A program made the position numbers and the translations under genes. Under the pieces are notes generated by a model. It had not been told where the DNA came from. It ran no database searches and saw nothing but the letters and a program-made list of their open reading frames with translations. Below, piece after piece: positions 10,159 to 58,540 of a stretch of DNA of 58,540 nucleotides. The stretch lies in NCBI GenBank assembly GCA_037131875.1, contig JBAXQF010000001.1:1-58540 (forward strand), in the 5' to 3' direction. The stretch is from Verrucomicrobiota bacterium (GTDB lineage: Bacteria > Verrucomicrobiota > Verrucomicrobiia > Chthoniobacterales > Chthoniobacteraceae). Every line of letters starts with the position of its first letter. The stretch's first letter is position 1.

Positions 10159-10160
10159 GA

Positions 10161-11324: not shown

Positions 11325-11447
11325 GCGTGGGCACTTACTAGAGCATTCGCGAGAGAATTTCCATTAAATCCGTGCAGACGGGCAAAGATGCCTTCGCCAA
11401 GAACGCGATTGATTTGCGGCACCCAGTGCCGATATGGTGCCCGGATT

Positions 11448-26708: not shown

Positions 26709-26918
26709 TCACTCCTCCGGCTGATCCAGCGCCGGGCCGGTGCGATCCGCGTAGTCTTCAAGGTGATCCGGCGTCAGCGGCTCGGAAATTTTGTAGTCCT
26801 CCGTAAACCAGTTCCCAAGATCAACCCGCTTGCACCGGATCGAACAAAACGGCCCCATCGGATCGGCAAAAAAATCACTCTCTCGTCCGCAAATCGGGCA
26901 TTTGATGGGTGTGGGCAT
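26709..26918 (-). CDS. yacG: DNA gyrase inhibitor YacG (zinc finger)
   Basis: MPTPIKCPICG...FCSIRCKRVDLGNW, 69 aa. Only the 3-prime part of the long tracked ORF is real. Confidence 0.8.
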   Translation of the reverse strand: MPTPIKCPICGRESDFFADPMGPFCSIRCKRVDLGNWFTEDYKISEPLTPDHLEDYADRTGPALDQPEE

Positions 26919-26996
26919 GCCAAAATCATAGCTCTTCTTGCGCCCATCTGCAACGGGACGTTGACGCGGGGAGCCCGACCTGCCTAGGGTAACGCG

Positions 26997-27701
26997 ATGC
27001 TCCCGGAAATCGAAAAACTTCTTGTTCTGCAGGATCGCGACCAGCGGATCAAAACCCTCAAGACCGAACTCAAAAACGCTCCCATCGAGCGCAAAGATTT
27101 GGAGACACGCCTCGCCGCCACCGCCGCCGGAGCTGAAAAAGCCAAGGCCAGCCTGCGCGAGCTGGAGGTCGAAAAGAAGCGCCTCGAAGTGGAGGCCCAG
27201 AGCAAGCGCGACCAGATCAACCGCTTTAAAACCCAGCAGATGCAGACGCGCAAGAATGAGGAATTCCAAGCGCTCGGCAACGAAATTGCCCACTTCGAGA
27301 AAGAGATCGGCAAGATCGAAGATCGCGAACTGGAAGTCATGGAGGCGATCGAAGCCGCCAAGCCTGTGCTTGCCGACGCGGAACGCGCCGTCGCCGAAGC
27401 CCGGAGCCGGGTGGCCGCGCAGATTGCCGATCTCGAAGCCAAAATCGCCACCCTCAACGAGACCCTCAAAACGACGGAAGCCGAACGCGCCTCGCTCACA
27501 GGCGGCATCGACGAAGACCTTCTGGATCAATACAACCGCCTCTTCGCCTCCAAGGGCGGCAACGCCGTCGTCTCCCTGGAACACGAGGTTTGCACCGGCT
27601 GCCACATGAAACTGACCACGCAAACGCTCGTGCGCGTGCGCGGCGGAAAAGAGATCACCCACTGCGAACAGTGCGGGCGGATCTTGTATTGGGTGGTGTA
27701 A
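26997..27701 (+). CDS. Coiled-coil protein with C-terminal C4 zinc ribbon (COG1579/DUF164 type)
   Basis: Long heptad-rich region, then CTGCHMKL...CEQCGRILY. Confidence 0.8.
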   Translation: MLPEIEKLLVLQDRDQRIKTLKTELKNAPIERKDLETRLAATAAGAEKAKASLRELEVEKKRLEVEAQSKRDQINRFKTQQMQTRKNEEFQALGNEIAHFEKEIGKIEDRELEVMEAIEAAKPVLADAERAVAEARSRVAAQIADLEAKIATLNETLKTTEAERASLTGGIDEDLLDQYNRLFASKGGNAVVSLEHEVCTGCHMKLTTQTLVRVRGGKEITHCEQCGRILYWVV

Positions 27702-27705
27702 CAGA

Positions 27706-27975
27706 GGGATTCGCAGATGCTCCTCGTTCCCAAGCTCCAGCTTGGGAACGCCCTTGTCCCCGAGGCTCCAGCCTCGCAAGCGTGGACGCGGATTGAACGT
27801 GCGATTTTACCCGGCGACATTGCGAAGTCGGAGCTTCGAAGAGATCGGCATTACCAATGCTGGAGCCTGGTAACGAGAATAAAATATTGCCCGCACGCGT
27901 GATCTGTAGATCACGATTTTCGAATCGGAGATTCGCAGACAATGACATTCCCAATCGGGAGATTGGGAACCAGGT
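27706..27975. repeat. Cluster of at least seven back-to-back short palindromes (BIME-like mosaic)
   Basis: The palindromes are at 27725-27750, 27761-27776, 27823-27838, 27851-27873, 27898-27915, 27921-27935 and 27948-27969. The unit gattcgcaga-N-TTCCCAA hairpin is present twice. Confidence 0.75.
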
Positions 27976-32874: not shown

Positions 32875-33027
32875 TCGGAATAGATGCTATCAAAATCGAC
32901 ATCCCAACAAGAGAAAAATCCCCCGCGAAAAAGTGTTTCTCTTCCGGGATTCCCAGCATAGATTTCCTCTCCACCACGCGCCTCCGGGCGCCGAACCTTC
33001 CGTCCCACACCCAACCCGCCCAACGCC

Positions 33028-34992: not shown

Positions 34993-35004
34993 AGCGTTCG
35001 GATT

Positions 35005-35102
35005 TAGCCGCAAAAAGGCGCAAAAGACGCAAGAATTCAGAAAAAGCAGGCCGAACAGCGGAAAATCCCTCTTGTTCTTTTCCTGATTTCCTGAGTTCCT
35101 GA
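35005..35102. repeat. Chimeric repeat: one CGCAAAG-like arm plus one TCAGGAA-type TIR
   Basis: gccgcaaaaaggcgcaaaagacgcaag (35005-35034), then ttcttttcctgatttcctgagttcctgat (35075-35102), ending 13 nt before the ybaB ATG. Confidence 0.6.
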
Positions 35103-35114
35103 TAAGCAATCTCT

Positions 35115-38602: not shown

Positions 38603-41098
38603 ATGATCACTCATCTTTTGAAAAAAGACATTCGCCGCTCGCGTGTGCTGCTTGCCATGTGGTTTTTGCTGATTGTCGCGCAGTTTGCCCTCACCGGTTC
38701 CGGTGCGAATCCCTCCGACCGCGCCATGCAGGCGGCGTTTCAAATGATCGCAGTGCTGGTGCCGTTCTTCCAGACGTTGCTACTCATTGTGATCATCCCG
38801 CACGTAGTTCATGAAGAACCGCTCGTCGGAACCACGGCGTTTTGGTTCACGCGCCCCATTTCCCCGTCGCTTCTCCTCAAGAGCAAAGCGCTCTTTGCCC
38901 TGTTGCTCCTCGTCCTTCTGCCCCTGCTCACGGAAGTGATTGTCCTCGCGGCGAACCGCGTTACCGCGCACGACATCGCCCTGGCGGTTCCTGAAATCGT
39001 GATGGGCCAGTTGGTGCTGATTATTAGCATTGCCCTCATCGCCGTGATGACGCGCAACTTTGGTCGCTTTGCCATCGCCGGGGCAGGGGTTCTGATCGCA
39101 TGGGTTCTCGTGATGATGGCGTTGCAATTCGCAAAGATTTTTCTGCACCCGGAGACCTTGATAAACGCAGGAGGGGACAGCCTCTCGCTGGCAAAATCGC
39201 GGGGAGTGGCCGGGTCTCTGCTGACCATTCTTGCGGGAGGCGCAATCGTGGCGCATCAATACTTGACCCGGCGCACCGCGCGTTCCATTGCCGCCGCAGT
39301 GGTTGGGGTTGCGGTCGTTTTGGTTGTCCAGAATTACTGGCCGGTGAATTTCCTCAAACCGGCCCCTGTCGATAATACCCGAGCAAACTTTGACACCGCC
39401 GCCGTGAAAATCGAGTTCGCCTCCTCGCCCTCCGTGTCTGATGCCATGTCGATACGAGGCAAAGAGGCGCCCGAAAAAAGGGTGCAGGCGAATATCCGAA
39501 TTTTAGGAATCCCGAGCGGTGATGTTGCCGAAGTCAAGCGCGTCCAATCCAAACTCAAACTCCCGAACGGCCAACCTCTGGCGGTGAAAGCCTCGAACGC
39601 AGGCACTTTCAATGGCAATCCTGATATTGACGCGCTTGAAGCCGCGCTCGGTGGAGTTTCCGTTGTCAATGCCGACAGCCAGTCCTCTTCCCTTTACGCA
39701 CAGCTCTTCGCGATGGATGCGGCAGCCTACAAAAAAAACGAGGCCCAGGAGTTGGAGATGTCGGCGGACATCGAGCTTCTTGTTTCGCGGTATGTCATCG
39801 CGGGAGAACTGCCGCTCAAAAAAGGATCGCGCTACGACCGGGGCTCGGAGCATGTTGTTGTGACCGATGTGTTGAATCAACCCAACGGCGTGGACATCGT
39901 GCTCCAACAGCGCAAAATCAATTTGCTCTTTGATCGAAACAGCCTCGCCGAATCTTCGTTCTCAAACCAAAAGAGCGTCGTTTATCTCCTGGTCAACAGG
40001 AAGCGCCGTGAGGCGATTCAGCCAAACAGCAATGGCAACTTTGCGGTTAATTTTGCCAGCAGCAGATTAAAAAACGAGCCATTGCGCCTTGTGTTCGGGC
40101 CGGATCAAAACCGCTCGCGTCTTTTGCCGGAAATCAATGAACAATGGCTCGCAGACGCCGTTCTGGTGCGGCTCGCCCGCGTTCCCGTGGCGGAATTCAC
40201 CCGGCAGCTCACGGACGAGAAATTCGTCATGAACGGAAACGCATGGAACAAGAGCCACAAGGCCCGCAGCAGCGATGCCAGCGAAGGGCCGGATAAGGCG
40301 GCGCTTGCCAAAATCCAACTCCCGGAGAACGCCACAAAGCAACAGGTGAAGGAGTACGTGTTTGCGGTGATGGTTGCCTCGAAAAAACAGAACTCACGCA
40401 GTGATCGCGATCCCCAGGTGGACATGCTTGCCAAAGTCGGCGCAGAAAACATGGATGTGCTCATCGACGCGGCGAACAAGCAGAAGTATGGAGCTTCTTT
40501 CTATGTCTGGGAAGCGGTCAAGAAACTGGCACGCCCCGAAGACAAGGAGATCATTCTGGCGGCGCTTCCCGCAGAGCACAGCTTGGTTTCTCTCGTCCTC
40601 AAATATGGCTGGGCGGCGGATGCAAAGGAAATACTCCTCTCCGCGCTTGCAGATGAGAAAAGCTCTCTGCCCCTGGGTTGGATCAAGGCGGTGGCGACAC
40701 TTCAAGACCCTTCCACTTATTCCGATCTGACGAAATATTTCGTCCGTCGGGATGGAAACCGAAGGGATGTCTTTAATGCAATCAAAGACCTGCCCGGGAT
40801 CGACCTGACCGATGCGGTCGCCGAATCTTGGAAGCGGGCGAAGTTTCATTCGGAGTCTGACATTCTGGAAATGAGCCCGATTGCCGCGGAATACGGGAAC
40901 ATCGAGGCGCTGGACGCTGCCGTAAAGCTCCTCAAGAGCGACAGCAAGAACAACTACGAGCGCAAACGCGCAAGCGAAATCCTGCGGAAGTTTACTCCCG
41001 CTACCGGCAACGACCCTGCGCTGCTGGCTTGGCATGATGCCAACCGCGCGAACCTTGCCTTTGACGCCGCCAGCAAGAAATTCATCCCCAAGCCGTAG
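38603..41098 (+). CDS. ABC-2-type permease fused to a large extracytoplasmic region and a C-terminal HEAT/ARM-like repeat region
   Basis: About 6 hydrophobic helices in the first 250 aa and about 330 aa soluble beta-rich sequence. The C-terminal roughly 230 aa is alpha-helical with repeat-like segments (ALPAEHSLVSLVLKYGW..., LSALADEKS..., AIKDLPGIDL...). Confidence 0.6.
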   Translation: MITHLLKKDIRRSRVLLAMWFLLIVAQFALTGSGANPSDRAMQAAFQMIAVLVPFFQTLLLIVIIPHVVHEEPLVGTTAFWFTRPISPSLLLKSKALFALLLLVLLPLLTEVIVLAANRVTAHDIALAVPEIVMGQLVLIISIALIAVMTRNFGRFAIAGAGVLIAWVLVMMALQFAKIFLHPETLINAGGDSLSLAKSRGVAGSLLTILAGGAIVAHQYLTRRTARSIAAAVVGVAVVLVVQNYWPVNFLKPAPVDNTRANFDTAAVKIEFASSPSVSDAMSIRGKEAPEKRVQANIRILGIPSGDVAEVKRVQSKLKLPNGQPLAVKASNAGTFNGNPDIDALEAALGGVSVVNADSQSSSLYAQLFAMDAAAYKKNEAQELEMSADIELLVSRYVIAGELPLKKGSRYDRGSEHVVVTDVLNQPNGVDIVLQQRKINLLFDRNSLAESSFSNQKSVVYLLVNRKRREAIQPNSNGNFAVNFASSRLKNEPLRLVFGPDQNRSRLLPEINEQWLADAVLVRLARVPVAEFTRQLTDEKFVMNGNAWNKSHKARSSDASEGPDKAALAKIQLPENATKQQVKEYVFAVMVASKKQNSRSDRDPQVDMLAKVGAENMDVLIDAANKQKYGASFYVWEAVKKLARPEDKEIILAALPAEHSLVSLVLKYGWAADAKEILLSALADEKSSLPLGWIKAVATLQDPSTYSDLTKYFVRRDGNRRDVFNAIKDLPGIDLTDAVAESWKRAKFHSESDILEMSPIAAEYGNIEALDAAVKLLKSDSKNNYERKRASEILRKFTPATGNDPALLAWHDANRANLAFDAASKKFIPKP

Positions 41099-42525: not shown

Positions 42526-44823
42526 CTAGGGATGAGCCGAGAGCGGCAGGCGCAGGTTGGGGAGGTCTTTCAGGGTGAAGGTCAGCACAACGCCGACATC
42601 GGCTACATTCTTGCCGGTGAGGCTGTTGTAATTTTCCTTCATGGTGAAGCCCAGCGATGCAATCCAGCTCGAGAGATCGCGGTGGAGTGCATAGTTCTGT
42701 GATTGAAGGGTGCTGTCAGAAAATTCGTATTGATCGCTGAAACTGACGGCCCAGTTGTCGTTGACCCGATAATAGGCGCCAAACACCAGGTTGTTGCTAT
42801 TGGCGAAGAAAACATTGTTCTCAAGATAACGATGGCCGACGGTGAAGCTGAGGTCCTCGTTGGCCAGAAAATGGAGATCGGTATTGAGCTGGGTGAAGCC
42901 GCTGCTCGTCAGCGGGATCTGGCTATCCATGCGTAAAGAGACCCAGGAGAGCGGCGCATAGATGAGTTGGTTGCAGAGATTGGAAAACGCTCCCTCAGAG
43001 GGGAGGCCTGGGTAGCTGGGGGCTTCCAGATTCGCGTTCAAAAACGTGTTCATCGTCACCAGGTTGTAGGTCGTGTCGTCGCGCCGGGTCTGCAGGGTGT
43101 TGCGAACGCCCAAACGCCAGATGGTCCAGTTAGGAATCGCATCCAAGGTGGTGAACTGCGGGAAGCTGATGGGGGGAAGCTCTGTGGTGGGCGTGAGTCG
43201 ATCGAATTGCAGGATGCTGTTGGGATTGTCTCCAGTTCTCACGAAGGAGAGATCGGTATAGGGTTGCCCCACATGGCGCAGTCCGTCGAGGCCAAGGGAG
43301 CGGGACTGCATTTCCTCCCATTCGCGCGAGAATTTGAAGGAGGACTCGATGCCTGCATTCAACACGGGACGGAAGACTGCGCCGCTGGACTTGTGCTGGA
43401 GGAGCGTCTCCACGTTTTGATTCAGATCCAGCCCGTTGGTTTGCAGGATATTAAAAGCGCTCTCTGCACCAGCCGAATAGTAGGTGCCCCTCAAGCCGAC
43501 GCGCGGAATCACCGAAAGCCAGCCGTCATAGGTTTGCGGCAGAGAAAGCTGGTGAAAGGTGTCGAAGCGGAAGGCATCGTAGTTTTCAAGCAGGGCACTG
43601 GTGGCGACAGGGTGCAGCGCATCCGTGTTTGAGAGCGTGCCGAAGGTGCGAGCAAGGCGCCCTGCGCTGGTTTCGCTTTCGTAGAAGACGGGGGAGTCCG
43701 CGCAGAGCGGCGCGTTAAAAAGGGGCTGCCGGGTGACGTCCAAAGCGGCTTCGGGCAGCCGCTCGGTGGTATCCAGAAAGCCGTTGCCTTGGAAGCGCAC
43801 AATCCCCGTGGCGGTGTAGCCTTCGTTCCATTTGGTCAGCGAGACCACGTTGTCAGGCTGCGGATTATTGCGGTATTCTGAGGGATAAAAATCGCGCAGA
43901 AACCGGTAATCACTCAGCTTGTTGAGGTCGGCATTCGCGTAAATCTCCTCTGTAAGGTACGTCCGGCTTTGGAAGGAAAGGCGGTAACGGCTGGAGGTGA
44001 CGGGAGCAATGACCTGGGCGGTGTTGTTGGTGTTGCTGCTGGTGTCTTCGGCGTAATAGCTCCGGAAGTGAGCCCAGCTTTTATTTTCGGGGCCAAACGT
44101 ACTCTTGGTATCGAACCCGACGGCAACGCCGCGCTTGGAGCGCAGATCCAGATCCAGCATGCCGTGGATGTTATCGGTCAGGGGAACGCCATAACGGTTG
44201 AGCACGTAGGCTCCCCAATCGCTGTTGTAGCCGGGGGTAAAGTTGAAGCCGGATTCCTCTTTGAGCGACTGGTAGATATACGGGAACCAAAAGACAGGCG
44301 TTTCCCCCACATACATCGAGACGTTGGTGAGGGTGATGTAGTCGTTGGGGTGAATGCGAATGTTGCGGGCCTGGAAATGGTAGTCCGGCTTGCTGGAATC
44401 GCTGGTGGTCGCAATCGCGTTTTTCGCCTCGTAGCCGGTTCCATCGGTCAAGGAGTTGACGGTCTCTCCCTTGGTGAAAAAGGGAGTCATGCTGGAGCGG
44501 AAATTCGAGGAGCGCAGCAATTTCGTTTCAAGGTTGTAAAGGGCGCGATCCCCCTCCACCAATCTCCCGTCCCGGTAGAGCCGCACGTTGCCGATGGCGA
44601 GCACATCCCGGGTCTCGGGGTTGTATTGTACGTAATCCGCGTAAATGGAGGTGCTGCCGTAATGGATGATGACGTTGTTTTCCGCCACCGCCACGCCGCC
44701 AACAAAGCGCGTTTCGCCATCCGCGGTGATTTCGATGGGGATATCCCCAAAGCTTCCAAATTGCGCCCGTGCGCAGGCAGCGCTCAGGAGCAGTAGGGCG
44801 AGAAGCAGGAAGCGGTTCTTCAT
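42526..44823 (-). CDS. lptD: LPS-assembly outer membrane protein LptD (OstA family)
   Basis: Signal peptide, OstA-like N-domain (ADYVQYNPETRDVLAIGNVRLY) and a large aromatic-rich beta-barrel region. Confidence 0.8.
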   Translation of the reverse strand: MKNRFLLLALLLLSAACARAQFGSFGDIPIEITADGETRFVGGVAVAENNVIIHYGSTSIYADYVQYNPETRDVLAIGNVRLYRDGRLVEGDRALYNLETKLLRSSNFRSSMTPFFTKGETVNSLTDGTGYEAKNAIATTSDSSKPDYHFQARNIRIHPNDYITLTNVSMYVGETPVFWFPYIYQSLKEESGFNFTPGYNSDWGAYVLNRYGVPLTDNIHGMLDLDLRSKRGVAVGFDTKSTFGPENKSWAHFRSYYAEDTSSNTNNTAQVIAPVTSSRYRLSFQSRTYLTEEIYANADLNKLSDYRFLRDFYPSEYRNNPQPDNVVSLTKWNEGYTATGIVRFQGNGFLDTTERLPEAALDVTRQPLFNAPLCADSPVFYESETSAGRLARTFGTLSNTDALHPVATSALLENYDAFRFDTFHQLSLPQTYDGWLSVIPRVGLRGTYYSAGAESAFNILQTNGLDLNQNVETLLQHKSSGAVFRPVLNAGIESSFKFSREWEEMQSRSLGLDGLRHVGQPYTDLSFVRTGDNPNSILQFDRLTPTTELPPISFPQFTTLDAIPNWTIWRLGVRNTLQTRRDDTTYNLVTMNTFLNANLEAPSYPGLPSEGAFSNLCNQLIYAPLSWVSLRMDSQIPLTSSGFTQLNTDLHFLANEDLSFTVGHRYLENNVFFANSNNLVFGAYYRVNDNWAVSFSDQYEFSDSTLQSQNYALHRDLSSWIASLGFTMKENYNSLTGKNVADVGVVLTFTLKDLPNLRLPLSAHP

Positions 44824-48160: not shown

Positions 48161-50218
48161 TCAGCGCGCCCTTTTGCTGGCAAAACGCACGAGCGCCTCT
48201 TTCATCGCCGTGGCGTGCACCGGCTTGCTGAGAAAATCATCCATGCCCGCGCCCAGGCATAACTCGCGGATGGAATCGCTCACATGCGCCGTCATGGCCA
48301 TGATGTAGGCCGGTTTGCGGGATTGAGCGGCCTCATATTCCCGAATCCGCCGCGTGGTTTCGCAGCCGTCCCATCCGGGCATCTCGCGATCCATCAGAAT
48401 GAGGTCGAATGCTGTTTTCTGGACGGCCTTGAGCGCGTTTTCCCCATCGGCTGCCACCGCCGCAGAGTAGCCGAGCTTGCGCATGAGCGCCGAGGCGATG
48501 AGCAGGTTCACCTGGTTGTCTTCCACGAGCAGAACCTTCAAACCCAGGGGCAACGCAGTCGCGGGTGCAGCCTGCTTGGGCAGTGGCGCGCGGCGAGGGG
48601 CTTTGTTCAGCGGCGTCGCGATGCATTCCATCGCTTCGCATTGCCTGAGCGGGATGGTCATTTGCGCGTCAATCCCTGTTTCCAAGAGGGATGCCGGTTC
48701 CTCGCCCGGGTTTTCTGGCGCAAGCAGAATCACCCGGATCTGAGCGAGGGCGGGGTCGCCCTTGATTTCCTGAGCCAAGGCTGCCGCCTCTTCTTTGGGG
48801 AGATGGAGAACGGCACAGTCAAAGCGAACCGCGCCTGCGTCGCGCAGCATGGGGAGTGCAAGTGCGGGCGCCTCCACTCCGGCGGTGTGGAAATGGAACG
48901 CGCGCATTTGCTGCTCAATGAGGTGGCGCAGGGCGGGGGTCTTTGCCACCACAAGCACGCGGCACTCTTCCAGGGAGGCCGGTTCTTGCGCGACATTCTG
49001 TTTCAGCAGCGGAACGGTGCAGCGGAAGGCAGAGCCTTTGTCCAGGGCGCTTTCCAAACCGATGTGCCCGCCCATCAACTCCACCAACTCCCGGCAGATG
49101 GCCAGGCCCAGGCCGGAACCCCCGTATTTGCGGGAGGTTGATTCATCCGCCTGGCTGAAAGGCTGGAAGAGGTGCTGCTGCGCCTCCGTGGGGATGCCGA
49201 CGCCGGTGTCCTGGACTTCCAGGCAGAGCATGGCCCGTGTGGCGTCTTCGCTCAGGAGACTGGCGCGCACCACGACATGACCTTGCGGGGTGAATTTGAT
49301 GGCGTTGCTCACCAGGTTCATGATGACCTGGCGCAGACGCAGGGGATCGCCCCGCAGGAGGGTCGGCGTCCGTGGCGCAATGATGCCCGCAAGATAAAGC
49401 CCTTTGGAGTTGGCGCTGCCCGCCACGATCTTCAAGACGCTTTCAATGACCTCCCGCAGGTCAAAATCAATGCACTCCAAAGTCAGCTTGCGGGCTTCCA
49501 TTTTGGAGAAGTCGAGGATGTCGTTCACCAGGGCGACAAGCGATTCCGAGCAACCGCGAATGGTGTTTACATAATCGCGCTGCTGATCCGTCAAGCTGGT
49601 TTCCAGGAGCAAACCGGACATGCCGATCACCCCGTTCATCGGCGTGCGCAGTTCGTGGCTCATGCTGGCCAGGAAGTTGCTCTTGGCTTGGGCGGCTCTT
49701 TCAAGCTGCTGGTTGGCGCCGACGAGCGCGGTGTTGCTCGCAACCAATGCCTGCTGGCTTTGGCGCAACGCTTCAAACGCGTCGTCGCGCTGGATGCGGT
49801 GCCAGCTTGCCATGGAGTGGTAGCGAATGCGCGCAAGGATCTCAAGGCGATCCGGCAGCTTCACCATGTAATCATTGGCTCCGGCTGCGAAGAGCGTGCT
49901 CTTGGTTTCCGCCTCCTCTTTGGTGGAGAGGATGACGATAGGCGTGTGCTCGGTCTCCGGGTTGGAGCGAAAGTCGCGCAGCAGTGTCAACCCGTCAACT
50001 TGGGGCATCACCAGATCGAGCAGAATCACCGTCGGCTTCACGCGGTTGGCCATGGAGATGGCCTCCAGCGGGTTGGCGCAGTAGTGGAAATCCACGTCCG
50101 GCTCGCCCGCCACAGCCTGTTGCATGGCGGCGGCGACCAGCGCCTGGTCGTCCACCAAGAGAACCAGTGCAGGGCAGCGTTCCTGGCCATCCTTCCAATA
50201 CTCAGTCATTTGTTCCAT
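48161..50218 (-). CDS. Hybrid histidine kinase: WspR-like REC + stalk, HisKA, HATPase_c, degenerate REC, REC
   Basis: N-terminal receiver ([16 protein letters not shown]...ARIRYHS), H-box [31 protein letters not shown]. The middle receiver lacks acidic pocket residues (VVAKT, AVLHLP). The C-terminal receiver has [13 protein letters not shown]. Confidence 0.9.
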
Positions 50219-50906
50219 GGTCAGTCCAGTCTTTCAACATGCTTGCATAACAATCAGGGCAGAGGCCGTGGGAAAAGGTCACATCGGTGTGCTCAGTGAG
50301 GTAGGTGTCGAGCAGGTGCCAGTAATTTTGATCATCGCGGACTTTCTTGCAGCTACAGCAGATGGGGAGCAGCCCCTGCAATTGTTTGACTTCGTCGAGC
50401 GCCTTTTTCAGGCCTTCGTTGAGCAGGCGCAGTTCGGTGTTTGTGCGCACCAGTTGCTGCTGGCTTTCGCGCAAGGCAACGAAGGCTTCCTCGCGCTGGA
50501 GCCGGTTTACGTGCGCCCGGGTGTGGTAGCGGATGCGGGCGCGCAGTTCGATCATATCCGGGAGTTTCACCAGATAATCATTGGCTCCAAGGGCGAAGGC
50601 GTCGCTCTTCGTCTGAGCTTCCTCCTCTGCGGAAAGCACGACGATGGGCGCCTCGGCGGTGACAGCGTTCTCGCGGAAGAGCTTCAACAGCGTGAGCCCG
50701 CTGATCTGGGGCATCACCAGATCGAGAAGGATGACCGTTGGCCTGAGCGTGTTGGCCAGTGCGATGGCCTCATGGGGATTGGGACAAAAATGAAGGTCAA
50801 TATCGCTCTGTCCATTCAGGGCGCGCGTGACGGCGTCGCCCACAAAGGCCTGGTCGTCAATCAAGAGAACCAACGCATGGTAGGTGTCTGGGAGTTCGTG
50901 ATCCAT
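50202..50906 (-). CDS. Response regulator: WspR-like REC + coiled-coil stalk + C-terminal Cys/His-rich module (no GGDEF)
   Basis: Receiver with [12 protein letters not shown] and [16 protein letters not shown], stalk [34 protein letters not shown], then [43 protein letters not shown]. The start at MDHELPD avoids overlap with cheB. Confidence 0.8.
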
Positions 50907-50917
50907 TTGCCAGGTCT

Positions 50918-51952
50918 TCAGGAGGTTTTGGAAGATTTCGGGTGAGTGCAACATTTGAGAAGGGCGGCGGCAATCCCGCCAAGAGATAAAATTTCAGTCG
51001 CGGCTCCGAGTTCCGCCGCCGCTTTGGGCATTCCATACACGGCACACCCTTCCTTGCTTTGGGTGATGGTGTGAAAGCCTGCATTGCGCAAGGTTTTGAG
51101 GCCCCTGGCTCCGTCGCGTCCCATGCCGGTAAGCAGAATCCCCACCACTTCGCCCGGCCAATGCCGCGCGACGCTTTCAAAAAAGACATCCACGGAAGGC
51201 CAGTAGAAGGATTCCTTCGGTTCGCTCGTGTATTTCAAGCGCCGTGGATTTGCCAAAATCAGGTGTTTGCTGCTCACCGCCATCAACACTTCTCCGGGCC
51301 GGGGGGTGTCCCCGTCGCAGATCCCGCGCATCGGCAGGGAACACTGCTGCTTCAGCCATTCCACCAGGGACGGCGCAAACTGCTCATCCACATGCTGGAC
51401 GATGATGATGGGCGAGGGGAAGTCTTTGGGAAGCTGTTGCAGGATTTCCGCCAGCGCACTGGGGCCTCCTGCGGATGCGCCGATGACCACCAAGGGAGGC
51501 GCTTCCTGCTGAGGGGAAGCGGTGGACGATGCTTGTCTGCAAAGGCATTCCCGAACCCCCTCAAGCATCCCGCTCAAGGTGTCGATCTTGGCAAGAAGCG
51601 GTGCGCTGACTTTGTGAAGGTCGCCCACTCCCAGCGCCGGGGTGTCCACCGCGTCCAGGGCGCCGTTCCCCATGGCCTGGAAAACCATCTCCGCGTTTTC
51701 TTCCACGCTGCAAGTCACGACAAGGATGGCACACGGACATTGCAGCATGATCTCGCGGGTTGTCAGCACGCCATCCATCTTCGGCATGATCAGATCCATC
51801 AAAATCAAATCCGGCGTGTCCTTCAAACACAGCGCCAACGCCTCGCGCCCATTGCTGGCGATCCATGCGACCTCGTGTGTGCCGGGCAGTGATACAGCCC
51901 GCCGCAAGGCTTCTGCTGCCACTGGTAAATCGTTGACGATAGCAATGCGCAT
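50918..51952 (-). CDS. cheB: Chemotaxis response regulator protein-glutamate methylesterase (WspF position)
   Basis: REC (LILMDLIMPKMDG) plus the esterase motifs GASAGGP, QHVDEQF and TGMGRDG. Confidence 0.9.
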   Translation of the reverse strand: MRIAIVNDLPVAAEALRRAVSLPGTHEVAWIASNGREALALCLKDTPDLILMDLIMPKMDGVLTTREIMLQCPCAILVVTCSVEENAEMVFQAMGNGALDAVDTPALGVGDLHKVSAPLLAKIDTLSGMLEGVRECLCRQASSTASPQQEAPPLVVIGASAGGPSALAEILQQLPKDFPSPIIIVQHVDEQFAPSLVEWLKQQCSLPMRGICDGDTPRPGEVLMAVSSKHLILANPRRLKYTSEPKESFYWPSVDVFFESVARHWPGEVVGILLTGMGRDGARGLKTLRNAGFHTITQSKEGCAVYGMPKAAAELGAATEILSLGGIAAALLKCCTHPKSSKTS

Positions 51953-52025
51953 TTTTAGTTTCGTGAGATTCTACAACTTTCCTACAGTTTTCGCATAACG
52001 TATAGTTACGTATATTTCTGGAATT
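51953..52025. promoter_or_regulatory. AT-rich spacer inside the che cluster with phased ACGTATA direct repeats
   Basis: ACGTATA at 51998-52004 and 52008-52014; CTACA twice; TAGAAT on the minus strand (51968-51973) 16 nt before the cheB ATG. Confidence 0.3.
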
Positions 52026-54284
52026 CTATTCCAAAGCTTCCCCAATCAAATCCGTCACCGCGTTGAGCAGCGTTTCGTCATGGAAGCTGCCTTTGGTGAG
52101 ATAGTAGTCCGCTCCGGCCTCCAGCCCCCGGTTGCGGTCTTCGGGCCGGTCTTTGTAGGAGACAATCATCACGGGAAGCTCCTTGAGGCGCGGATCGTTC
52201 TTGATGAGGCGCACCAATTCAATGCCGTCCAGACGCGGCATGTCGATGTCGGTGACGACCAGATCGAACGGTTGCGTGCGCACCGCGTTCCACCCGTCCA
52301 TGCCGTCGATGGAGACCTCCACTTCGTAGCCGGCATTGCTGATGAGCTTGCGCTCCAGTTCGCGCACGGTCAGGGAATCGTCCACCACCAACACCCGCTT
52401 GCGGCGGCGGTCTGCATGCACCGCTCCGGCGCGCTGCACCCGGTCAAGTTGCCCGTGGGAAATCAGCAATTCCACCGAGCGCATCACATCATCCACGTCA
52501 AGGATCAGCACCGGGGAACCGTCGGGCATGAGGGCTCCGGCGTTGATGTCCTTGATCTTTCCAAGCCGCGGATCCAGCGGTTGAACCACCAGTTGCCGTT
52601 CGCCCAAAAAGCGATCCACCACCACGCCGAAGCGCTTGGCGCGATCCCCCAGGATCACCACCGAGACTTGATCTGCGCTGGATGTTTGATTTTTGCCGAA
52701 GATCTGCGCCGCCGAGACCAATCCAACCCGCTGGCCTTCAAAGGGGGCATGCTCCCGGCCCTCCAGCGTTTCGATGTCGGTGCGCGCCACGTGCAGGGTG
52801 CGCGTCAGCCGTGCAAGCGGGATGGCATAAGGTTCTCCGGCTACCTCCACCAACAAAAACCGCATGACGGAAAGCGTCAGCGGAAGCTGGAGTTGGAACC
52901 GCGTTCCGTTGCCGGGCTGGGTGGTCAGGCGCACGCTGCCACCCAGGGCTTTGACGGTGTTCTGGACGACATCAAGGCCGACGCCGCGCCCGGAGATTTC
53001 CGTCACTTCCTCGCGCATGGAGAAGCCCGGCAGGAAGAGGAAATCCAGGAGTTCCTCTTCGCTCAATGTTCTTGCCACATCCGCCGTGGTCAGTTTTTTG
53101 GAAACCACCGCCGCGCGCAGGGCTTCAAGCAAAACGCCCCGGCCGTCGTCTTCGATGCTGACCATGAGCAGCCCGGCCACATGGCGCGCTTCCAGTCGCA
53201 ACATTCCTTCGCGGGGTTTTCCGGCGCGCAGGCGTTCCTCCGGCGCTTCGAGCCCGTGATCCAGCGCGTTGCGCAAGAGATGGCCGAGCGGCGCTTCCAG
53301 CCGTTCCAGCACATCGCGATCCACGGGAGTTGTTTCCCCGGAAATTTGCAGCTTCACTTCCTTGCCAAGTTGGCGGGCAAGATCGCGGGCAAGCCGCTGG
53401 AACCCTTGCACTCCGTCGGCGAAGGGGCGCATCCGGCTCGCGAGAACTTCCCGGTAAAGCCGGTGGGAAAGGCTGGCCGAGCGGCGCGTATAAAGCTCCA
53501 GTTCCTCATGGCGCGCGCCCAGATTCTGTACGCAAGCCGCAGCCTGCTGCTGGGCATTGGTCAACAGGGCGGAGGTTTTTTCGTCGAGGCTTTTCCCGCC
53601 AAGCGACTCCCGCAAGGCTTCCATTGTCTGGGAAAGTTTCGTCTGCTGACGCTTGAGCCGCAGCAGCGATTCCGCATACGGAGAAAGCCAGCGCGATTCC
53701 ACCAACGCCTCTCCCGCAAGCCCCAAAAGGCGGTTCAAATTCGTTGCGGCCACCCGCAGCACCCGGTCGTCGGACTTTGCCGCAGCCGGCGCCCCGGCGC
53801 TCTTCATTTCTTCAGGCTTCGCAGCGCTTTCGGGTGGGGGTGAAGGTTGGGGAAATTCGGGCTGCTTCGGCGCATTCCCACTCGTGATTGCTGTGACGGC
53901 GCAAACCATCTGTTCGATCTCCGGGGCGTTCTCATTTTTCCAGACGCCGATCTCCGCTTCCGGTGTTTGCGCAATGCGGCTGAAGAGATCGACGCTGCGC
54001 AGGAGAACATCCACCGCGCCCGCGTGCAAGACGATGGCGCCTTTCTGTGCCGCCACAAAGCAATCCTCCATGGCGTGGGCAACCTGCACTGCGGCGTGGA
54101 GACCCACGATGCGCGCCGCGCCCTTGAGCGAGTGGGCGGCCCGCATCAACTCCTCCAGCAGGACAGCTTCGGTGGGATCGCGCTCCAAGGCGAGAAGCCC
54201 CTGGGTGAGGACGGCGCTCTGGCTTTCGGCCTCCTTGTGGAAAAGGTCGAGGAGCGAAAACTGGTTGTAGTCGTTCTGGCTCAT
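52026..54284 (-). CDS. cheA: Hybrid CheA: Hpt, dimerisation, HATPase, CheW-like, C-terminal REC (WspE architecture)
   Basis: Hpt HSLKGAARIVG, N-box HLLRNALDHGLE, GRGVGLDVV, CheW-like domain, receiver LVVTDIDMPRLDG. Confidence 0.92.
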   Translation of the reverse strand: MSQNDYNQFSLLDLFHKEAESQSAVLTQGLLALERDPTEAVLLEELMRAAHSLKGAARIVGLHAAVQVAHAMEDCFVAAQKGAIVLHAGAVDVLLRSVDLFSRIAQTPEAEIGVWKNENAPEIEQMVCAVTAITSGNAPKQPEFPQPSPPPESAAKPEEMKSAGAPAAAKSDDRVLRVAATNLNRLLGLAGEALVESRWLSPYAESLLRLKRQQTKLSQTMEALRESLGGKSLDEKTSALLTNAQQQAAACVQNLGARHEELELYTRRSASLSHRLYREVLASRMRPFADGVQGFQRLARDLARQLGKEVKLQISGETTPVDRDVLERLEAPLGHLLRNALDHGLEAPEERLRAGKPREGMLRLEARHVAGLLMVSIEDDGRGVLLEALRAAVVSKKLTTADVARTLSEEELLDFLFLPGFSMREEVTEISGRGVGLDVVQNTVKALGGSVRLTTQPGNGTRFQLQLPLTLSVMRFLLVEVAGEPYAIPLARLTRTLHVARTDIETLEGREHAPFEGQRVGLVSAAQIFGKNQTSSADQVSVVILGDRAKRFGVVVDRFLGERQLVVQPLDPRLGKIKDINAGALMPDGSPVLILDVDDVMRSVELLISHGQLDRVQRAGAVHADRRRKRVLVVDDSLTVRELERKLISNAGYEVEVSIDGMDGWNAVRTQPFDLVVTDIDMPRLDGIELVRLIKNDPRLKELPVMIVSYKDRPEDRNRGLEAGADYYLTKGSFHDETLLNAVTDLIGEALE

Positions 54285-54287
54285 GGA

Positions 54288-54992
54288 TTAGGCGAGGTGG
54301 CGGCTGAGGGCGTAGAAGAGCAGGGATTCGTCCAGCACGCCGACGTTCCGCCCTTCCCAGGAAAGCAGGCCGGTGGTGTAGCGCGCGGCGGATTGTGCAA
54401 CGGTGGAGGGAACCGGCTTCAAATCGTTCGGATGATAACGCACGCCCACGTGCACTTCGTGGACGGAGAACACCACCCGCTCCGCGTTTTGCCCCACGAC
54501 CAGGAGCCGCTCATAAACGCTCCGCCCTTTTTGCATCGCGTTTTGCGCCGGGGTTGCCGCCGTTTCAATGCCCAGCAAATGGGCCAGGGAAACGCAAATC
54601 AAAAGCTCGCCGCGCACCATGGCAAGCCCTCGCACCATCGCGCCCTGCTGGTGCGGCAGAGTGTGGATGGGGCGCTGGTCCACCACCTCCTCAAAAACCT
54701 CGGTGGGCAATGCCAGCCATTCCCCGCCGATGCGGAAAATCACAATGGAGCGCGTGCCGGCCAGTTTTGCCTCTGGCGGGCGGGCCATGCGCTCCGTCCA
54801 GAAGTCGAGATAACCCTCGGGAGACTTGCGGTCAAGCAGGCTCGCCGCCGCCGCGCGAAAGACCTCGCAGTTCAGGCAGCGGATGTGCTTCTTGAGTTCG
54901 GGACACGTCTTGTCGCCGAAATTCCCTATCTGTTTCCAGCAGGCGGTGAACCCAATATCCGAGGTGGCAGAAGATGAAACGGTTTCGCTCAT
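54288..54992 (-). CDS. cheW: CheW-like coupling protein with N-terminal four-Cys motif (WspD position)
   Basis: CWKQIGNFGDKTCPELKKHIRCLNCEVF, then a CheW fold (IVIFRIGGEWLALP...). ATGA overlap with the cheR stop. Confidence 0.85.
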   Translation of the reverse strand: MSETVSSSATSDIGFTACWKQIGNFGDKTCPELKKHIRCLNCEVFRAAAASLLDRKSPEGYLDFWTERMARPPEAKLAGTRSIVIFRIGGEWLALPTEVFEEVVDQRPIHTLPHQQGAMVRGLAMVRGELLICVSLAHLLGIETAATPAQNAMQKGRSVYERLLVVGQNAERVVFSVHEVHVGVRYHPNDLKPVPSTVAQSAARYTTGLLSWEGRNVGVLDESLLFYALSRHLA

Positions 54993-56281
54993 GATGCTTT
55001 CGCTTTGGCTTTCGTCTGTGCCCGCCGGGCGCGCTCCTCAAGCTGCCGCGCCGCCTTGGCGTTGCCGCCTTTTTTTGTCAGCAGGGAGAGTTGGAAGAGG
55101 GCCTCGTGGTGATCCGGCTCCATGTAGAGAGTCTTCCGGTAATACGCTTCCGCCTGGGCGGGCTGGTTGGCTGCGTCCTCAATCAGCCCGAGCAAATAAT
55201 AGACGCGGCTGGAGGGCCCATGCGCCTTCAGGCAGGTTTCGCATTCGGCGCGCGCGGCATCGAAGCGGCCCGCGTCGGCCCATTTCTCGGCCTGGGCGAG
55301 CAGGGTTTCTGCCGTCGCGGGTGCCGTCGCGGGTGGGTTCGCTTTCACCCGGGGAGCAGGGATTACCGGGCGGGGAGGCGGGACGGCTGGTTTCACCGGC
55401 AAGGCAACCGCCCGGGGCGGAGCTATGGCGGCGGGCTTGGAAGCAGCCGCCTTGCGGGCCGTCGCGCCCGCCTTCTTCTTGCTTTTGCGGAAGGCGAACA
55501 CCATGGATTTTGGCAACGGCTCAAATCCAAACTCGCGGGAAATGCCTCCCTCCGCGTGGCCCAGGAACAGCAGCCCTTCTGGCGCAAGCATCCGGTCGAG
55601 CTTCGTCATGAGCCGCGCGCGGGAAGGCGCGTCAAAATAAATCATGAGGTTGCGGCAGAAAACGACATCCATTTCCCCTTCCTTGCGATCAAAGGAGGCG
55701 TCGAGCAGATTCGCCTGCCGGAACTGCACCTGGTTGCTGATCTGTTCATCCAGGCGCCAGCCGTCCCTGCACTTGTGAAAATGGATTTCGCGGAACTCGT
55801 TTTGCTGTCCGCGAAACGCATTGCGGTTGTAAACGGCTTGCCGCGCCTTGGCGAGCGCCTCTGCGCTGATGTCCACCGCCTCCACAGAAAAACGCTCGGG
55901 GGGCATCCCCGCATCCACAAGAGCCATGACGATGGAATACGGCTCCTCGCCCGTGGAACACGGCATGCTGATCACGCGCAGAACCTCGTAAGGGTGGGCT
56001 GGCAGCCATTCGTTCACGGCCCATTGGCCCAGTAATGCAAACGCCTCGCGATCCCGGAAAAACCAGGTTTCCGGCACCACAATCTCCTCAATGAGCGCGT
56101 GAAATTCCGTTTCCGAAGCGCCCAATAAGCCCGCGTATTCTGAAACAGTCTTGGTGCCCCGTTTTTTCATCCGGGTGCGGACAGCCAGCGTCACCATGGA
56201 GGGGCCGACAGAGCCGACATTCAGGCCGATTCCCCGCTGGAGAAGCGCCTCAATTTCCCTGGCTGGATCGGCCGCCGTCAT
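54989..56281 (-). CDS. cheR: CheR methyltransferase with Pro/Ala linker and C-terminal TPR (WspC architecture)
   Basis: ISMPCSTGEEPYSI, VFCRNLMIYFD, and a TPR-like C-terminus (YYLLGLIEDAANQPAQAEAYYRKTLYMEPDHHEALFQL). The start at 56281 gives an ATGA overlap with the upstream cheW. Confidence 0.85.
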   Translation of the reverse strand: MTAADPAREIEALLQRGIGLNVGSVGPSMVTLAVRTRMKKRGTKTVSEYAGLLGASETEFHALIEEIVVPETWFFRDREAFALLGQWAVNEWLPAHPYEVLRVISMPCSTGEEPYSIVMALVDAGMPPERFSVEAVDISAEALAKARQAVYNRNAFRGQQNEFREIHFHKCRDGWRLDEQISNQVQFRQANLLDASFDRKEGEMDVVFCRNLMIYFDAPSRARLMTKLDRMLAPEGLLFLGHAEGGISREFGFEPLPKSMVFAFRKSKKKAGATARKAAASKPAAIAPPRAVALPVKPAVPPPRPVIPAPRVKANPPATAPATAETLLAQAEKWADAGRFDAARAECETCLKAHGPSSRVYYLLGLIEDAANQPAQAEAYYRKTLYMEPDHHEALFQLSLLTKKGGNAKAARQLEERARRAQTKAKAKAS

Positions 56282-56742
56282 AATGCCTCCGCAGCTTGCC
56301 GCCACAAGGAGTTGCGCACTTCCGGTGTGAGCATCTGCCCGACATCCACCCGTTGCACAATCCCGCGTGCATCATGCACCACCGGCCCCAAATACGGAGC
56401 GCCTTCCGCCGCCACGCCGGGGTTTTGGAAATCTCCGTCCGCATACTGCGCGGTTTCCGTGGCCTTCTCCACCACCAGCCCAAGCAGCCGCTGCTCGCCA
56501 TCGGGACAAGGGTAGCGCACCAGCGCCAGCCGCGTGCTGAGACTGTCCTGCGCCGGTTGGCCAAGCGCCATGGCGCTCAAATCCACCACCGGCACCGGCT
56601 GCCCATGATAATTGAACACCCCGGCCACTCCCGCTGCCGCTTGGGGAATCCGCTTCAAGCGCACCATGGGCTCGACGGCGACAATCCCGCCCGCCTCAAG
56701 CGCGTAGCGGTCTTTGCCGATCTGGAAGAGAAGATAAACCAT
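56278..56742 (-). CDS. cheW: CheW coupling protein (WspB position)
   Basis: 154 aa CheW fold (YLLFQIGKDRYALEAGGIVAVEP...). Confidence 0.85.
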   Translation of the reverse strand: MVYLLFQIGKDRYALEAGGIVAVEPMVRLKRIPQAAAGVAGVFNYHGQPVPVVDLSAMALGQPAQDSLSTRLALVRYPCPDGEQRLLGLVVEKATETAQYADGDFQNPGVAAEGAPYLGPVVHDARGIVQRVDVGQMLTPEVRNSLWRQAAEAL

Positions 56743-56770
56743 GGTCGGAACCGGGGTTTCTTTAAAAAGA

Positions 56771-58261
56771 CTAGTCTTTCGACTTCAGTTGGGATGCCGC
56801 CACCTGCAAGCCTTGAGCCGCCTGCATGAGTTGCTCAATGGCATCGCTATTTTGGCGCAGGGCCTGGGCGGATTGCTGCGCCGTGTCACCCAGTTGCGTG
56901 AGCGCCTCGCTGATCTGCCCCGCGGCGGTGGATTGCATCTGCATGCCCTCGTTGACCGACTCGAAGCGCGGCGACAACGCCTGCACCTGCTGGATGATCT
57001 GAACCAGTTGCGCCGTCACGCCGCAAACCTCCTCATTGCCGCGTCGGACTTCCTCGGCGAATTTATCCATCCCCATCACCCCGGCGGAGACGGCGGATTG
57101 CATCTCCTTGACCATCTGCTCGATATCGTAGGTCGCCACGGCGGTCTGGTCGGCCAGGCGGCGGATTTCCGTCGCCACCACCGCAAAGCCCTGTCCGTAT
57201 TCGCCCGCCTTTTCCGCCTCAATCGCCGCATTGAGCGAGAGCAGGTTGGTTTGGTCGGCGACTTTGTTGATCGTCGTGACCATGGTGTTGATGTTGGCCG
57301 TCTTCTCATTGAGAATCGCCAGCTTGCCGGAAATGCTCGCGGTCGCGCCCATGATCTGGCCCATGGTCGATTCCAGGCGCGAGAGGCTCGCCTGTCCGCC
57401 CGCGGCAATCTCGGCGGTTTGTTCGGAGACCCCGGCCACATCGCTCATGGTCTTGCCGAGTTCCTTGGTGGTCGCGGAAATCTCCTTGGCCGTGCTGCCG
57501 ATCTCCATCGAGGTGGAGGCCACTTCATTCGCGCTGGCCTGCTGCTCCTTGAGCGTGGCGGCCATTTCCGTGGCGCTGCCGTTGACCTGGATGAGCGCCA
57601 GCATGAGGTTCTTCAAGGCGGCTCCGAGCATCTGGATCACGAGAGCGGCGACGCCGATGCACAACAGCACGCTGATCACGCTACCTGCCATCACAAACGT
57701 GTTGGTGGTGCTCACAGCATCGGAAATATCACTCAAAGATTTAAACGCATCCGCTTTGTCATTCTGCTCCATTGCCTCGACGGCTTTGGCAAACTCTTCC
57801 ATGGCCGGCACGTCTTTGTTCTCATACAAAAGGAGAGCCTCTTTGTTCTTCCCTTGGTTGACTAAGTTGATAACTTCGTCCCGGACGGCAAGATACTCGG
57901 CGCGCCGTTGCTTGAGCGCTTCAAAAAGTTTTGCTTCTCCACCAGGCAATACCAGTTTTTCACGTTCTGCAATGAGCTCCGAATTCTCTTTTGAACTCTC
58001 CTTAATCATCTCCAACGCGCGCGTTCTGATCACGGACTCTTCGATTGCAATCGCCCGCAGCACAGCTTCGTCATTCTGCCGCGCATGTTGCAGAATCTGT
58101 CCGGTGAGATAGAGCCCCGGCACTTGATTTTCGTGCATGTCATCGGATATGACCTGGATGCCTTTCAGCCGGATCACGGAGTAACCGCAGATTGAGGCGG
58201 AGAGGAGGATGACAACGAAGAAGCCAACCGTTACGAGTCTTTGGACGGTCCAGTTTTTCAT
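56771..58261 (-). CDS. Methyl-accepting chemotaxis protein (WspA position) with four-helix-bundle-type periplasmic domain
   Basis: TM1, helical sensor region and TM2. Signalling hairpin LLSLNAAIEAEKAGEYGQGFAVVATEIRRLADQTAVAT. The start at MKNWTVQR is preferred. Confidence 0.9.
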   Translation of the reverse strand: MKNWTVQRLVTVGFFVVILLSASICGYSVIRLKGIQVISDDMHENQVPGLYLTGQILQHARQNDEAVLRAIAIEESVIRTRALEMIKESSKENSELIAEREKLVLPGGEAKLFEALKQRRAEYLAVRDEVINLVNQGKNKEALLLYENKDVPAMEEFAKAVEAMEQNDKADAFKSLSDISDAVSTTNTFVMAGSVISVLLCIGVAALVIQMLGAALKNLMLALIQVNGSATEMAATLKEQQASANEVASTSMEIGSTAKEISATTKELGKTMSDVAGVSEQTAEIAAGGQASLSRLESTMGQIMGATASISGKLAILNEKTANINTMVTTINKVADQTNLLSLNAAIEAEKAGEYGQGFAVVATEIRRLADQTAVATYDIEQMVKEMQSAVSAGVMGMDKFAEEVRRGNEEVCGVTAQLVQIIQQVQALSPRFESVNEGMQMQSTAAGQISEALTQLGDTAQQSAQALRQNSDAIEQLMQAAQGLQVAASQLKSKD

Positions 58262-58540
58262 AGGGAGAAATGAGGCTGCGGCCCCCGATGGATATGCCAA
58301 GGCAGCGACGCGTTGCTTTGACTGTGGGGGTTTCCCGGATGTTAAGAGTAGAGCATCAATTGGTCAACTGCGAAGAGTGGGAATTGCCTTGGAATGCGAG
58401 GTTTGTTCCCATCTGCGGCCAGTTAACGGGGGGGGGTAAAAGCCTTCTCATGCCGGGCTTTAGCCGGCATTCCGGGGTTTTGCCACCGGCTTCAGCCCTG
58501 ACATGTATACACATCGCGAAGCCGCCATCGTAGGGGAGGC

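Follow-up and report, generated by a model that had tools for sequence, protein, structure and literature searches.

A Wsp-type chemosensory operon of a Verrucomicrobiota bacterium with a hybrid kinase and a putative four-cysteine output module at the WspR position

Introduction

To what output does a Wsp chemosensory array signal when the place of its response regulator WspR is taken by proteins without a GGDEF domain? Wsp is the textbook pathway by which surface sensing leads to cyclic diguanylate (c-di-GMP) and biofilms, and nearly all work on it concerns Pseudomonas. The question is raised by a locus in a 58,540-nucleotide (nt) stretch of DNA from a Verrucomicrobiota bacterium (assembly GCA_037131875.1, contig JBAXQF010000001.1, positions 1 to 58,540; hereafter the window), in which a chemosensory gene cluster on the minus strand ends in two such regulators. 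Judged by homology and gene order, this cluster is a genuine Wsp-type chemosensory operon in Verrucomicrobiota, and its core probably feeds two paralogous WspR-type outputs, of which one is a relay kinase and the other ends in a four-cysteine module, a putative zinc-binding output domain.

In the Wsp core of Pseudomonas, the receptor controls the kinase WspE via WspB and WspD, and WspC and WspF take care of adaptation (PMC8552884). In the same survey, Wsp was confined to Pseudomonas and the Betaproteobacteria (PMC8552884); contrary to it, the Wsp cores described below also lie well outside Proteobacteria.

Results

A Wsp core orthologous to that of Pseudomonas

An earlier note, made from the letters of the window, had described eight co-oriented minus-strand genes and named their domains, all of which was recovered in the list of open reading frames (ORFs) and in the Pfam scan. 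The features are as follows, where REC stands for receiver domain and lengths of proteins are in amino acids (aa).

48161-58261, minus strand: operon of eight tightly packed co-oriented genes (ORF list and Pfam scan)
56771-58261, minus strand: WspA-like methyl-accepting chemotaxis protein (MCP) with two transmembrane (TM) segments and a periplasmic 4HB_MCP_1 domain (Pfam MCPsignal, 1.4e-30; 4HB_MCP_1, 1.8e-23)
56278-56742, minus strand: WspB-like CheW (Pfam CheW, 4.8e-19)
54989-56281, minus strand: WspC-like CheR methyltransferase with C-terminal TPR (Pfam CheR, 8.8e-43; TPR_16, TPR_17, TPR_1)
54288-54992, minus strand: WspD-like CheW with an N-terminal cysteine extension of about 80 aa (Pfam CheW, 1.6e-18, residues 83-226)
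52026-54284, minus strand: WspE-like hybrid CheA kinase, Hpt-HATPase-CheW-REC, without P2 domain (Pfam)
50918-51952, minus strand: WspF-like CheB methylesterase, REC plus CheB_methylest (Pfam, 4.2e-58)
50202-50906, minus strand: output 1, WspR-type receiver, stalk helix and four-cysteine module, 234 aa (profile, alignment, AlphaFold2 model)
50250-50366, minus strand: four-cysteine module P-x-C-x2-C-x29-C-x2-C of output 1, 39 residues (alignments)
48161-50218, minus strand: output 2, WspR-type REC-stalk-HisKA-HATPase-(degenerate REC)-REC (Pfam)

To place the cluster, we scanned one genome per GTDB species with the receiver family of output 1, which returned 80 loci, and annotated these and five loci from relatives (85 in total) with the window's own proteins. 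It turned out that the order MCP-CheW-CheR-CheW(Cys)-CheA-CheB-receiver is the same in nearly every sufficiently long locus. About 60 of the 85 are wsp loci of Pseudomonas, Burkholderiaceae, Achromobacter and other proteobacteria with a GGDEF regulator, all retrieved through the receiver alone. With domain E-values of the operon proteins from 1e-13 to 1e-58 and synteny conserved in more than 80 other loci, the assignment is far beyond chance.

The six core proteins align over their full length in BLASTP with those of P. fluorescens and P. putida at 37-53% identity. For the individual proteins, the identity to the Pseudomonas counterpart is 40-41% for WspA (41% to P. fluorescens WspA), 45-48% for WspB (to the protein at the WspB position), 42-43% for WspC, 37-39% for WspD and 52-53% for WspF, and WspE reaches 51-52% to Pseudomonas and Ralstonia over about 765 aa (691-736 bits; 691-698 bits in the Pseudomonas comparison). 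With the gene order identical in the roughly 60 Pseudomonas and Burkholderiaceae loci and these alignments, the earlier reading of the cluster as wspA-B-C-D-E-F stands. Flagellar CheA proteins in the PDB (E. coli, Thermotoga) match the WspE homologue only in the kinase core, residues 272-600, with about 240 bits, and the CheB falls into the NCBIfam subfamily PRK12555 (444 bits against a cutoff of 342). CheR-TPR is a hallmark of alternative cellular function (ACF) clusters, among which Wsp is classed (PMC3447774). The CheR-TPR, the multidomain regulator and the orthology to Wsp lend indirect support to ACF membership of this operon, which we take as likely on these grounds.

The receptor has a signalling tip nearly identical to that of Pseudomonas WspA (alignment with L071:2491-4137; loci are cited by our own numbers). 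The Wsp-type receptor architecture is 4HB-HAMP-signalling; here the 4HB and signalling domains are present, and the HAMP segment of about 46 aa found in Pseudomonas WspA is removed by a clean deletion, both in the window and in the close relative L001. The receptor of L015 has a partial deletion at the HAMP position.

The cysteine-bearing CheW, listed as Cys-CheW in the earlier note, is not a peculiarity of this cluster. The motif CWxxIGxxGDxSCxxLxxxxHCxNC is found at the N-terminus of 64 of 71 WspD-position proteins, those of Pseudomonas included, and the window's version reads CWxxIGxxGDxxCxxLxxxxxCxNC. We therefore rejected it as a novelty and regard the protein as an ordinary WspD. The motif is of some interest in itself: it occupies the first 50 aa or so (54842-54992, minus strand) and is shared by WspD proteins of Pseudomonas and Verrucomicrobiota, the first 81 aa of the WspD homologue lie outside every Pfam model, and the published Wsp survey assigned no domain to WspD. 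The motif may be a second unnamed element of the Wsp array, one that binds a metal or a cluster.

Two WspR-type receivers behind one core

The WspR slot holds two genes which both open with a WspR-like receiver and helix, as had been proposed before, and profile comparison now ties both to WspR itself. A profile of 18 members of the output-1 family matches the crystal sequence of P. aeruginosa WspR (3bre_A) over residues 2-173 with an E-value of 2.2e-76 and the second WspR structure 3i5a with 1.4e-74, which covers the receiver and the stalk helix, and the N-terminal REC-stalk of the kinase matches 3bre and 3i5a at about 1e-52. In the family alignment of output 1 the key receiver residues DD, D, S and K are invariant, and its AlphaFold2 model consists, in this part, of a REC domain and a helix at residues 118-175.

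The two REC-stalks are 60% identical over 159 aa. In a rough neighbour-joining distance tree without support values, the window's two receivers and their counterparts in L001 and L087 form sister groups, which suggests that the pair may have arisen by lineage-specific tandem duplication, while fusions to the four-cysteine module sit at several separate positions of the tree. Three records of metagenome-assembled genomes (MAGs) with Wsp-like clusters carry unexpected names, "uncultured Bifidobacterium" (L009), "uncultured Bifidobacteriaceae" (L014) and "Chitinophaga pinensis" (L012). L009 and L014 group in the receiver tree with the Verrucomicrobiia MAG L011, and L012 with the Opitutaceae- and Akkermansia-labelled MAGs L015 and L022, so these three taxonomic labels look unreliable.

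Output 2 combines a WspR-like receiver with a hybrid histidine kinase and no GGDEF, the same combination by which WspH of Burkholderia is defined, a protein with a reportedly c-di-GMP-independent output (PMC8552884). Its H-box SHELRTP is present and the C-terminal receiver keeps its Asp. Of the architectures given in the earlier note, REC with helix and Cys/His tail for the one gene and REC-HisKA-HATPase-REC for the other are correct, and the pseudo-REC within the kinase is weakly supported: the middle domain (residues about 415-550) has no Pfam match, only a weak similarity to CheY (E = 0.004), and a His in place of the phospho-Asp. Since the kinase is without an Hpt domain, its relay must rely on an Hpt protein and a final regulator from genes elsewhere. 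A second hybrid histidine kinase, PAS-HisKA-HATPase-REC-REC with 1115 aa, is found at 17586-20933 on the plus strand, about 27 kb from the cluster.

No GGDEF in the window or near its relatives

We scanned the 58.5-kb window for the GG[DE]EF motif in every stop-to-stop frame with 100 aa or more and found none, and Pfam detected no GGDEF domain in the operon proteins, in agreement with what had been noted from the letters. Sixteen related loci likewise show no GGDEF motif in the 10 kb or so on either side of the regulator. The proposal that the array is "rewired away from c-di-GMP" therefore holds in so far as GGDEF is locally absent. As a new principle it does not, because non-GGDEF outputs of Wsp and ACF systems have been published, both WspH (PMC8552884) and regulators in which a receiver is fused to a histidine kinase, REC-HK (PMC3447774).

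A window of 58 kb is by itself too narrow a view to conclude that c-di-GMP has no part in this pathway. Either branch might activate a diguanylate cyclase or phosphodiesterase encoded elsewhere, so that c-di-GMP would still be controlled indirectly; the visible sequence is only 58.5 kb of a genome, the Wsp system of Pseudomonas acts via c-di-GMP, and an unknown cyclase was originally proposed for Burkholderia WspH (PMC8552884). Against this stand the missing motif in the window and around the 16 related loci, and the finding that Burkholderia wsp mutations altered colony morphology and left c-di-GMP levels unchanged (PMC8552884). On balance we consider indirect control unlikely.

The WspR position as a swap site

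To summarize what occupies the WspR slot, we compared 91 loci, which comprise the 85 above, the contexts of four further relatives and two short module loci. The WspR-type REC-stalk is fused to the following partners.

62 REC-stalks: GGDEF
15 REC-stalks: hybrid histidine kinase, mostly in Verrucomicrobiota and Acidobacteriota, some with a terminal Hpt
14 REC-stalks: four-cysteine module
5 REC-stalks: PP2C/SpoIIE-like phosphatase (L029, L031, L054, L069, L083; Pirellula, a Methylococcaceae MAG, SM23_31)

The WspR position is thus a swap site for GGDEF, hybrid kinase, PP2C-like phosphatase and four-cysteine module. In the Pirellula locus with the phosphatase fusion, the che genes are in a different, divergent order.

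The arrangement of the window, in which the wsp core is followed by the four-cysteine regulator and then the kinase, is also present in L001-L003 (70% identity), in L087 (63%) and in the metagenome contigs L092-L097 (63-97%), and the pair of four-cysteine regulator and kinase recurs in at least eight related contigs. That the two terminal genes stay with the che set in relatives, which the earlier note had named as a check, is therefore confirmed. Where flanks were examined (L001, L087) the flanking genes differ, indicating that the eight genes travel as a unit. Besides, in L006-L008, which come from three genomes of Chthoniobacteraceae, and likewise in L089, no regulator other than the four-cysteine protein follows the wsp core, and L088 has two tandem REC-stalk-four-cysteine paralogues (10001-11481) behind the core and no kinase. 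In L089 (10787-13809) the cluster is convergent with genes for a MshEN-T2SSE-REC ATPase and a REC-Hpt protein, and a CHASE3-PAS hybrid kinase precedes it.

A four-cysteine module at the output position

In alignments of the module at the end of output 1, C-x2-C...C-x2-C is invariant and residues L, G, P, I, K, R, D, Y, W, Y, H, G and P are nearly so. Of 188 copies, 187 span exactly 39 residues from the Pro to the last Cys, and the median C-terminal tail is 17 aa. When the 59-residue tail was compared by phmmer with all of 1.84 billion cluster representatives (clusters at 50% identity), the search gave 20,802 representatives at E<=1e-3 and 13,772 at E<=1e-10, in which the match is almost always C-terminal and the proteins are 83-1405 residues long. 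The roughly 55-aa Cys/His tail of the earlier note is thus real, and it was undervalued, since it belongs to a very widespread unnamed module at the output position (about 20,800 clusters).

We surveyed the partner domains in 76 diverse module carriers. PAS is the most abundant (25 carriers), followed by receiver (14), HAMP (9), MASE6 (6), GAF (5), dCache (4), HisKA_7TM (3), Reg_prop/Y_Y_Y (2) and TPR (2), and no classical output domain is among the families listed for these 76. Because the partners lack classical outputs, the module appears as the common element at the position where an output domain usually stands. At least one TM segment was predicted in 78 of the 150 top representatives and two or more in 59, figures which come from a crude hydropathy count on a sample biased to high-scoring two-module proteins. 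One subfamily (P0121-P0155) consists of membrane proteins of about 500 aa in which a unit of 4-5 TM segments and a four-cysteine module is repeated twice. In soil metagenomes, the genes of distant REC-four-cysteine proteins of about 210 aa come immediately after those of large hybrid kinases, like cognate response regulators. A word-indexed protein search with the module alone returned 15 short proteins; the contexts of two were viewed, and neither was informative; one of the two comes after a short receiver ORF and is perhaps a split-gene fragment.

The module has no match in Pfam at E<=10, no NCBIfam model (the output-1 protein gave receiver matches only) and no match by sequence profile in the PDB, and no named zinc-finger or zinc-ribbon family corresponds to it in the curated profiles and solved structures searched. 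Source annotations of the carriers read "response regulator", "PAS domain protein" or "hypothetical", names that reflect the sensory domains only. Literature searches by motif string and keyword found no description of it, though one may still exist. Modelled alone by AlphaFold, with a predicted local distance difference test (pLDDT) score of 87, the module forms a zinc-knuckle-like hairpin, a short helix and a C-terminal helix that starts at CPxC; it probably binds zinc. We tentatively propose that it is an undescribed and very widespread signal-output domain, which, in proteins with PAS, GAF, HAMP, Cache and receiver domains, would take the place of a kinase, cyclase or DNA-binding output. 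This is a serious possibility that falls somewhat short of an expectation.

The module might instead be a small dimeric zinc-finger DNA-binding domain, and the 234-aa protein a transcription factor that links Wsp to gene expression. Such a role would fit the small size of the module, its Cys4 pattern, its conserved K, R, Y and W (basic and aromatic), its attachment to a dimerising helix and its place where most response regulators have their DNA-binding domain, and the 210-aa proteins beside kinases resemble classical regulators. However, it shows no similarity to DNA-binding families in Pfam or the PDB, and the 78 of 150 carriers with a TM segment and the frequent HAMP, MASE6, dCache and 7TM partners are unusual for DNA binders, even though membrane-bound transcription factors exist. 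We think this improbable; with about half of the carriers membrane-anchored, a protein is somewhat likelier than DNA as the partner of the module.

A proposed branched output and its competing explanations

Taken together, the operon can be read as a Wsp core with a branched output. The membrane receptor, lacking HAMP, would control the WspE-type CheA through the two CheW-like couplers WspB and WspD, and CheR-TPR (WspC) and the methylesterase CheB (WspF) would provide adaptation as in Pseudomonas. Phosphorylated WspE most likely serves three receivers, that of WspF and those of the two WspR-type paralogues. In the first branch, phosphorylation of the receiver would switch the attached kinase via the stalk, probably in the manner of WspH or CheS3, and the signal would pass from the C-terminal receiver to an Hpt protein and on to the final regulator encoded elsewhere. 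For this branch the Che3 system of Rhodospirillum centenum is an experimental precedent, in which CheA3 phosphorylates REC1 of the hybrid kinase CheS3 (PMC3868531).

The second branch may work by assembly. Phosphorylation of WspR leads to stalk-mediated oligomerisation. If the stalk of output 1 behaves alike, phosphorylation would gather at least two modules, and their changed geometry or valency could cause a cytoplasmic partner to be bound or released.

Several observations weigh against the branched reading or against parts of it. The specificity of phosphotransfer is taken from homology only, and zinc binding from four invariant cysteines at fixed spacing only. Neither an Hpt protein nor a terminal regulator that would complete the path of the kinase was identified in the window, and the receiver tree carries no support values. 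The module has a pLDDT of 55-75 in the full-length model of output 1, and a Foldseek search of the module model with pLDDT 87 against the PDB gave a best match of E = 1.9 and no neighbour hinting at a function. Finally, L004 and L086 are orphan four-cysteine regulators with no che genes nearby, so this regulator is not obligatorily tied to Wsp.

A different role for output 1 is that of a phosphate sink or competitor which tunes the kinase branch, with the cysteine module serving stability or oligomerisation only. Sink CheY proteins occur in some chemotaxis systems. The two receivers, as close paralogues with 60% identity, would compete for one kinase, and their genes overlap and in this clade always sit side by side. 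A sink for the kinase branch is hard to reconcile, however, with L006-L008 and L089, where the four-cysteine protein is the sole regulator in the WspR slot, and with L088, where there are two such proteins and no kinase; moreover, the same module ends thousands of PAS, GAF, HAMP and membrane-sensor proteins that have no receiver. We judge the sink quite unlikely. That the module is instead a redox or metal sensor which gates the receiver, as Cys4 and two nearly invariant His could be, is very improbable, since it is the only constant part among established input domains (PAS, GAF, Cache, HAMP, REC), always stands C-terminal after a signalling helix, and would leave its carriers with no output.

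The reading as a Wsp core with two WspR-type outputs gives the locus a wider meaning. Compared with the literature considered here, four things are new: orthologous Wsp cores in Verrucomicrobiota, Acidobacteriota and other phyla, kinase outputs in 3' position, two WspR-type receivers forming a branched pair, and a four-cysteine module in the WspR slot. The branched version offers a natural case for studying how one CheA splits phosphate between outputs. It also ties an unnamed, common C-terminal Cys4 module to a pathway with a well-understood input, which brings its function within reach of experiments. Should the module prove to be both undescribed and a real output domain, on which this benefit depends, tens of thousands of annotations as "PAS domain protein" or "response regulator" would gain a function, and this operon, together with the Chthoniobacteraceae operons that have the module as sole regulator, would be a genetically tractable route to its partner and its function.

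Operon junctions and other features of the window

The junctions described in the earlier note were confirmed by reading them, namely the ATGA overlaps at 56278-56281 and 54989-54992 and the 3-nt gap at 54285-54287. Further downstream, the gene of the four-cysteine regulator overlaps the kinase gene (AATGACTGA). For output 1, the most likely start is the ATG at 50906, giving 234 aa, and not 50954, because the homologues are 234-240 aa long and begin at the equivalent of MDHELP; with this start the gap from the CheB stop is 11 nt. The only sizeable gap within the operon separates CheA from CheB and could serve the half that contains CheB and the outputs as an internal promoter or regulatory site. 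The non-coding features are as follows.

51953-52025, minus strand: AT-rich spacer of 73 nt between CheA and CheB, with a TATACGT direct repeat (sequence reading)
58339-58367, minus strand: candidate sigma-70-like promoter TTGACC-17-TAACAT, about 78 nt upstream of the MCP start (consensus scan)

The consensus scan found 1 promoter-like site upstream of the MCP where 2.0 are expected by chance, and for this reason the match is only a candidate. At the other end, a convergent malQ (GH77, 4-alpha-glucanotransferase) adjoins the kinase gene downstream, which sets the end of the operon at 48161; no convincing terminator was seen in the scan 3' of the kinase gene.

Elsewhere in the window, an ORF of 356 aa at 26709-27779 on the minus strand (predicted start) has a C-terminal YacG domain (residues 292-338), the zinc finger of the DNA gyrase inhibitor. 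YacG is normally a stand-alone protein of about 60 aa, and such a C-terminal fusion is unusual. Three long ORFs, at 42526-44823 (minus strand, 765 aa), 38603-41098 (plus strand, 831 aa) and 32890-35109 (minus strand, 739 aa), are putative genes with no Pfam match at the thresholds used.

Comparison with known systems

The operon is closest to the Wsp system of Pseudomonas, with which it shares the seven-position gene order, homology from WspA to WspF, the CheR-TPR, the cysteine motif of WspD and a CheA with C-terminal receiver, and both terminal REC-stalks match the WspR structures 3bre and 3i5a. It differs in having no GGDEF, two regulators in place of one, a receptor without HAMP and a Verrucomicrobiota host.

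The H-system of Burkholderia cenocepacia is similar in that WspR is replaced by a WspR-like receiver-hybrid kinase, a likeness drawn from the described architecture. The wspH gene of Burkholderia is located 5' of the cluster and encodes its sole output, and the survey contains neither an H-system whose regulator is 3' nor an organism that has both types (PMC8552884), whereas here the kinase gene is last, at the 3' end, and paired with a second regulator.

The Che3 system of Rhodospirillum centenum (CheA3 to CheS3 to CheY3) resembles the first branch, being of ACF type with a CheA-receiver hybrid that phosphorylates the receiver of a second hybrid kinase. Unlike the present operon, it has its own gene order, receivers that are not of WspR type, no four-cysteine regulator, and a terminal CheY3 encoded in the cluster.

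More generally, the survey of CheR-TPR/ACF clusters by Munoz-Martinez et al. (2012) reported receivers fused to HK, GGDEF, EAL, phosphatase and other domains, with REC-HK making up about 40% of the response-regulator sequences (PMC3447774). Multidomain regulators are thus common to that survey and to our loci, and PP2C-like phosphatase fusions were also found in the present scan, but the output domains listed there include no Cys4 or zinc module, which is the part that the operon described here adds.

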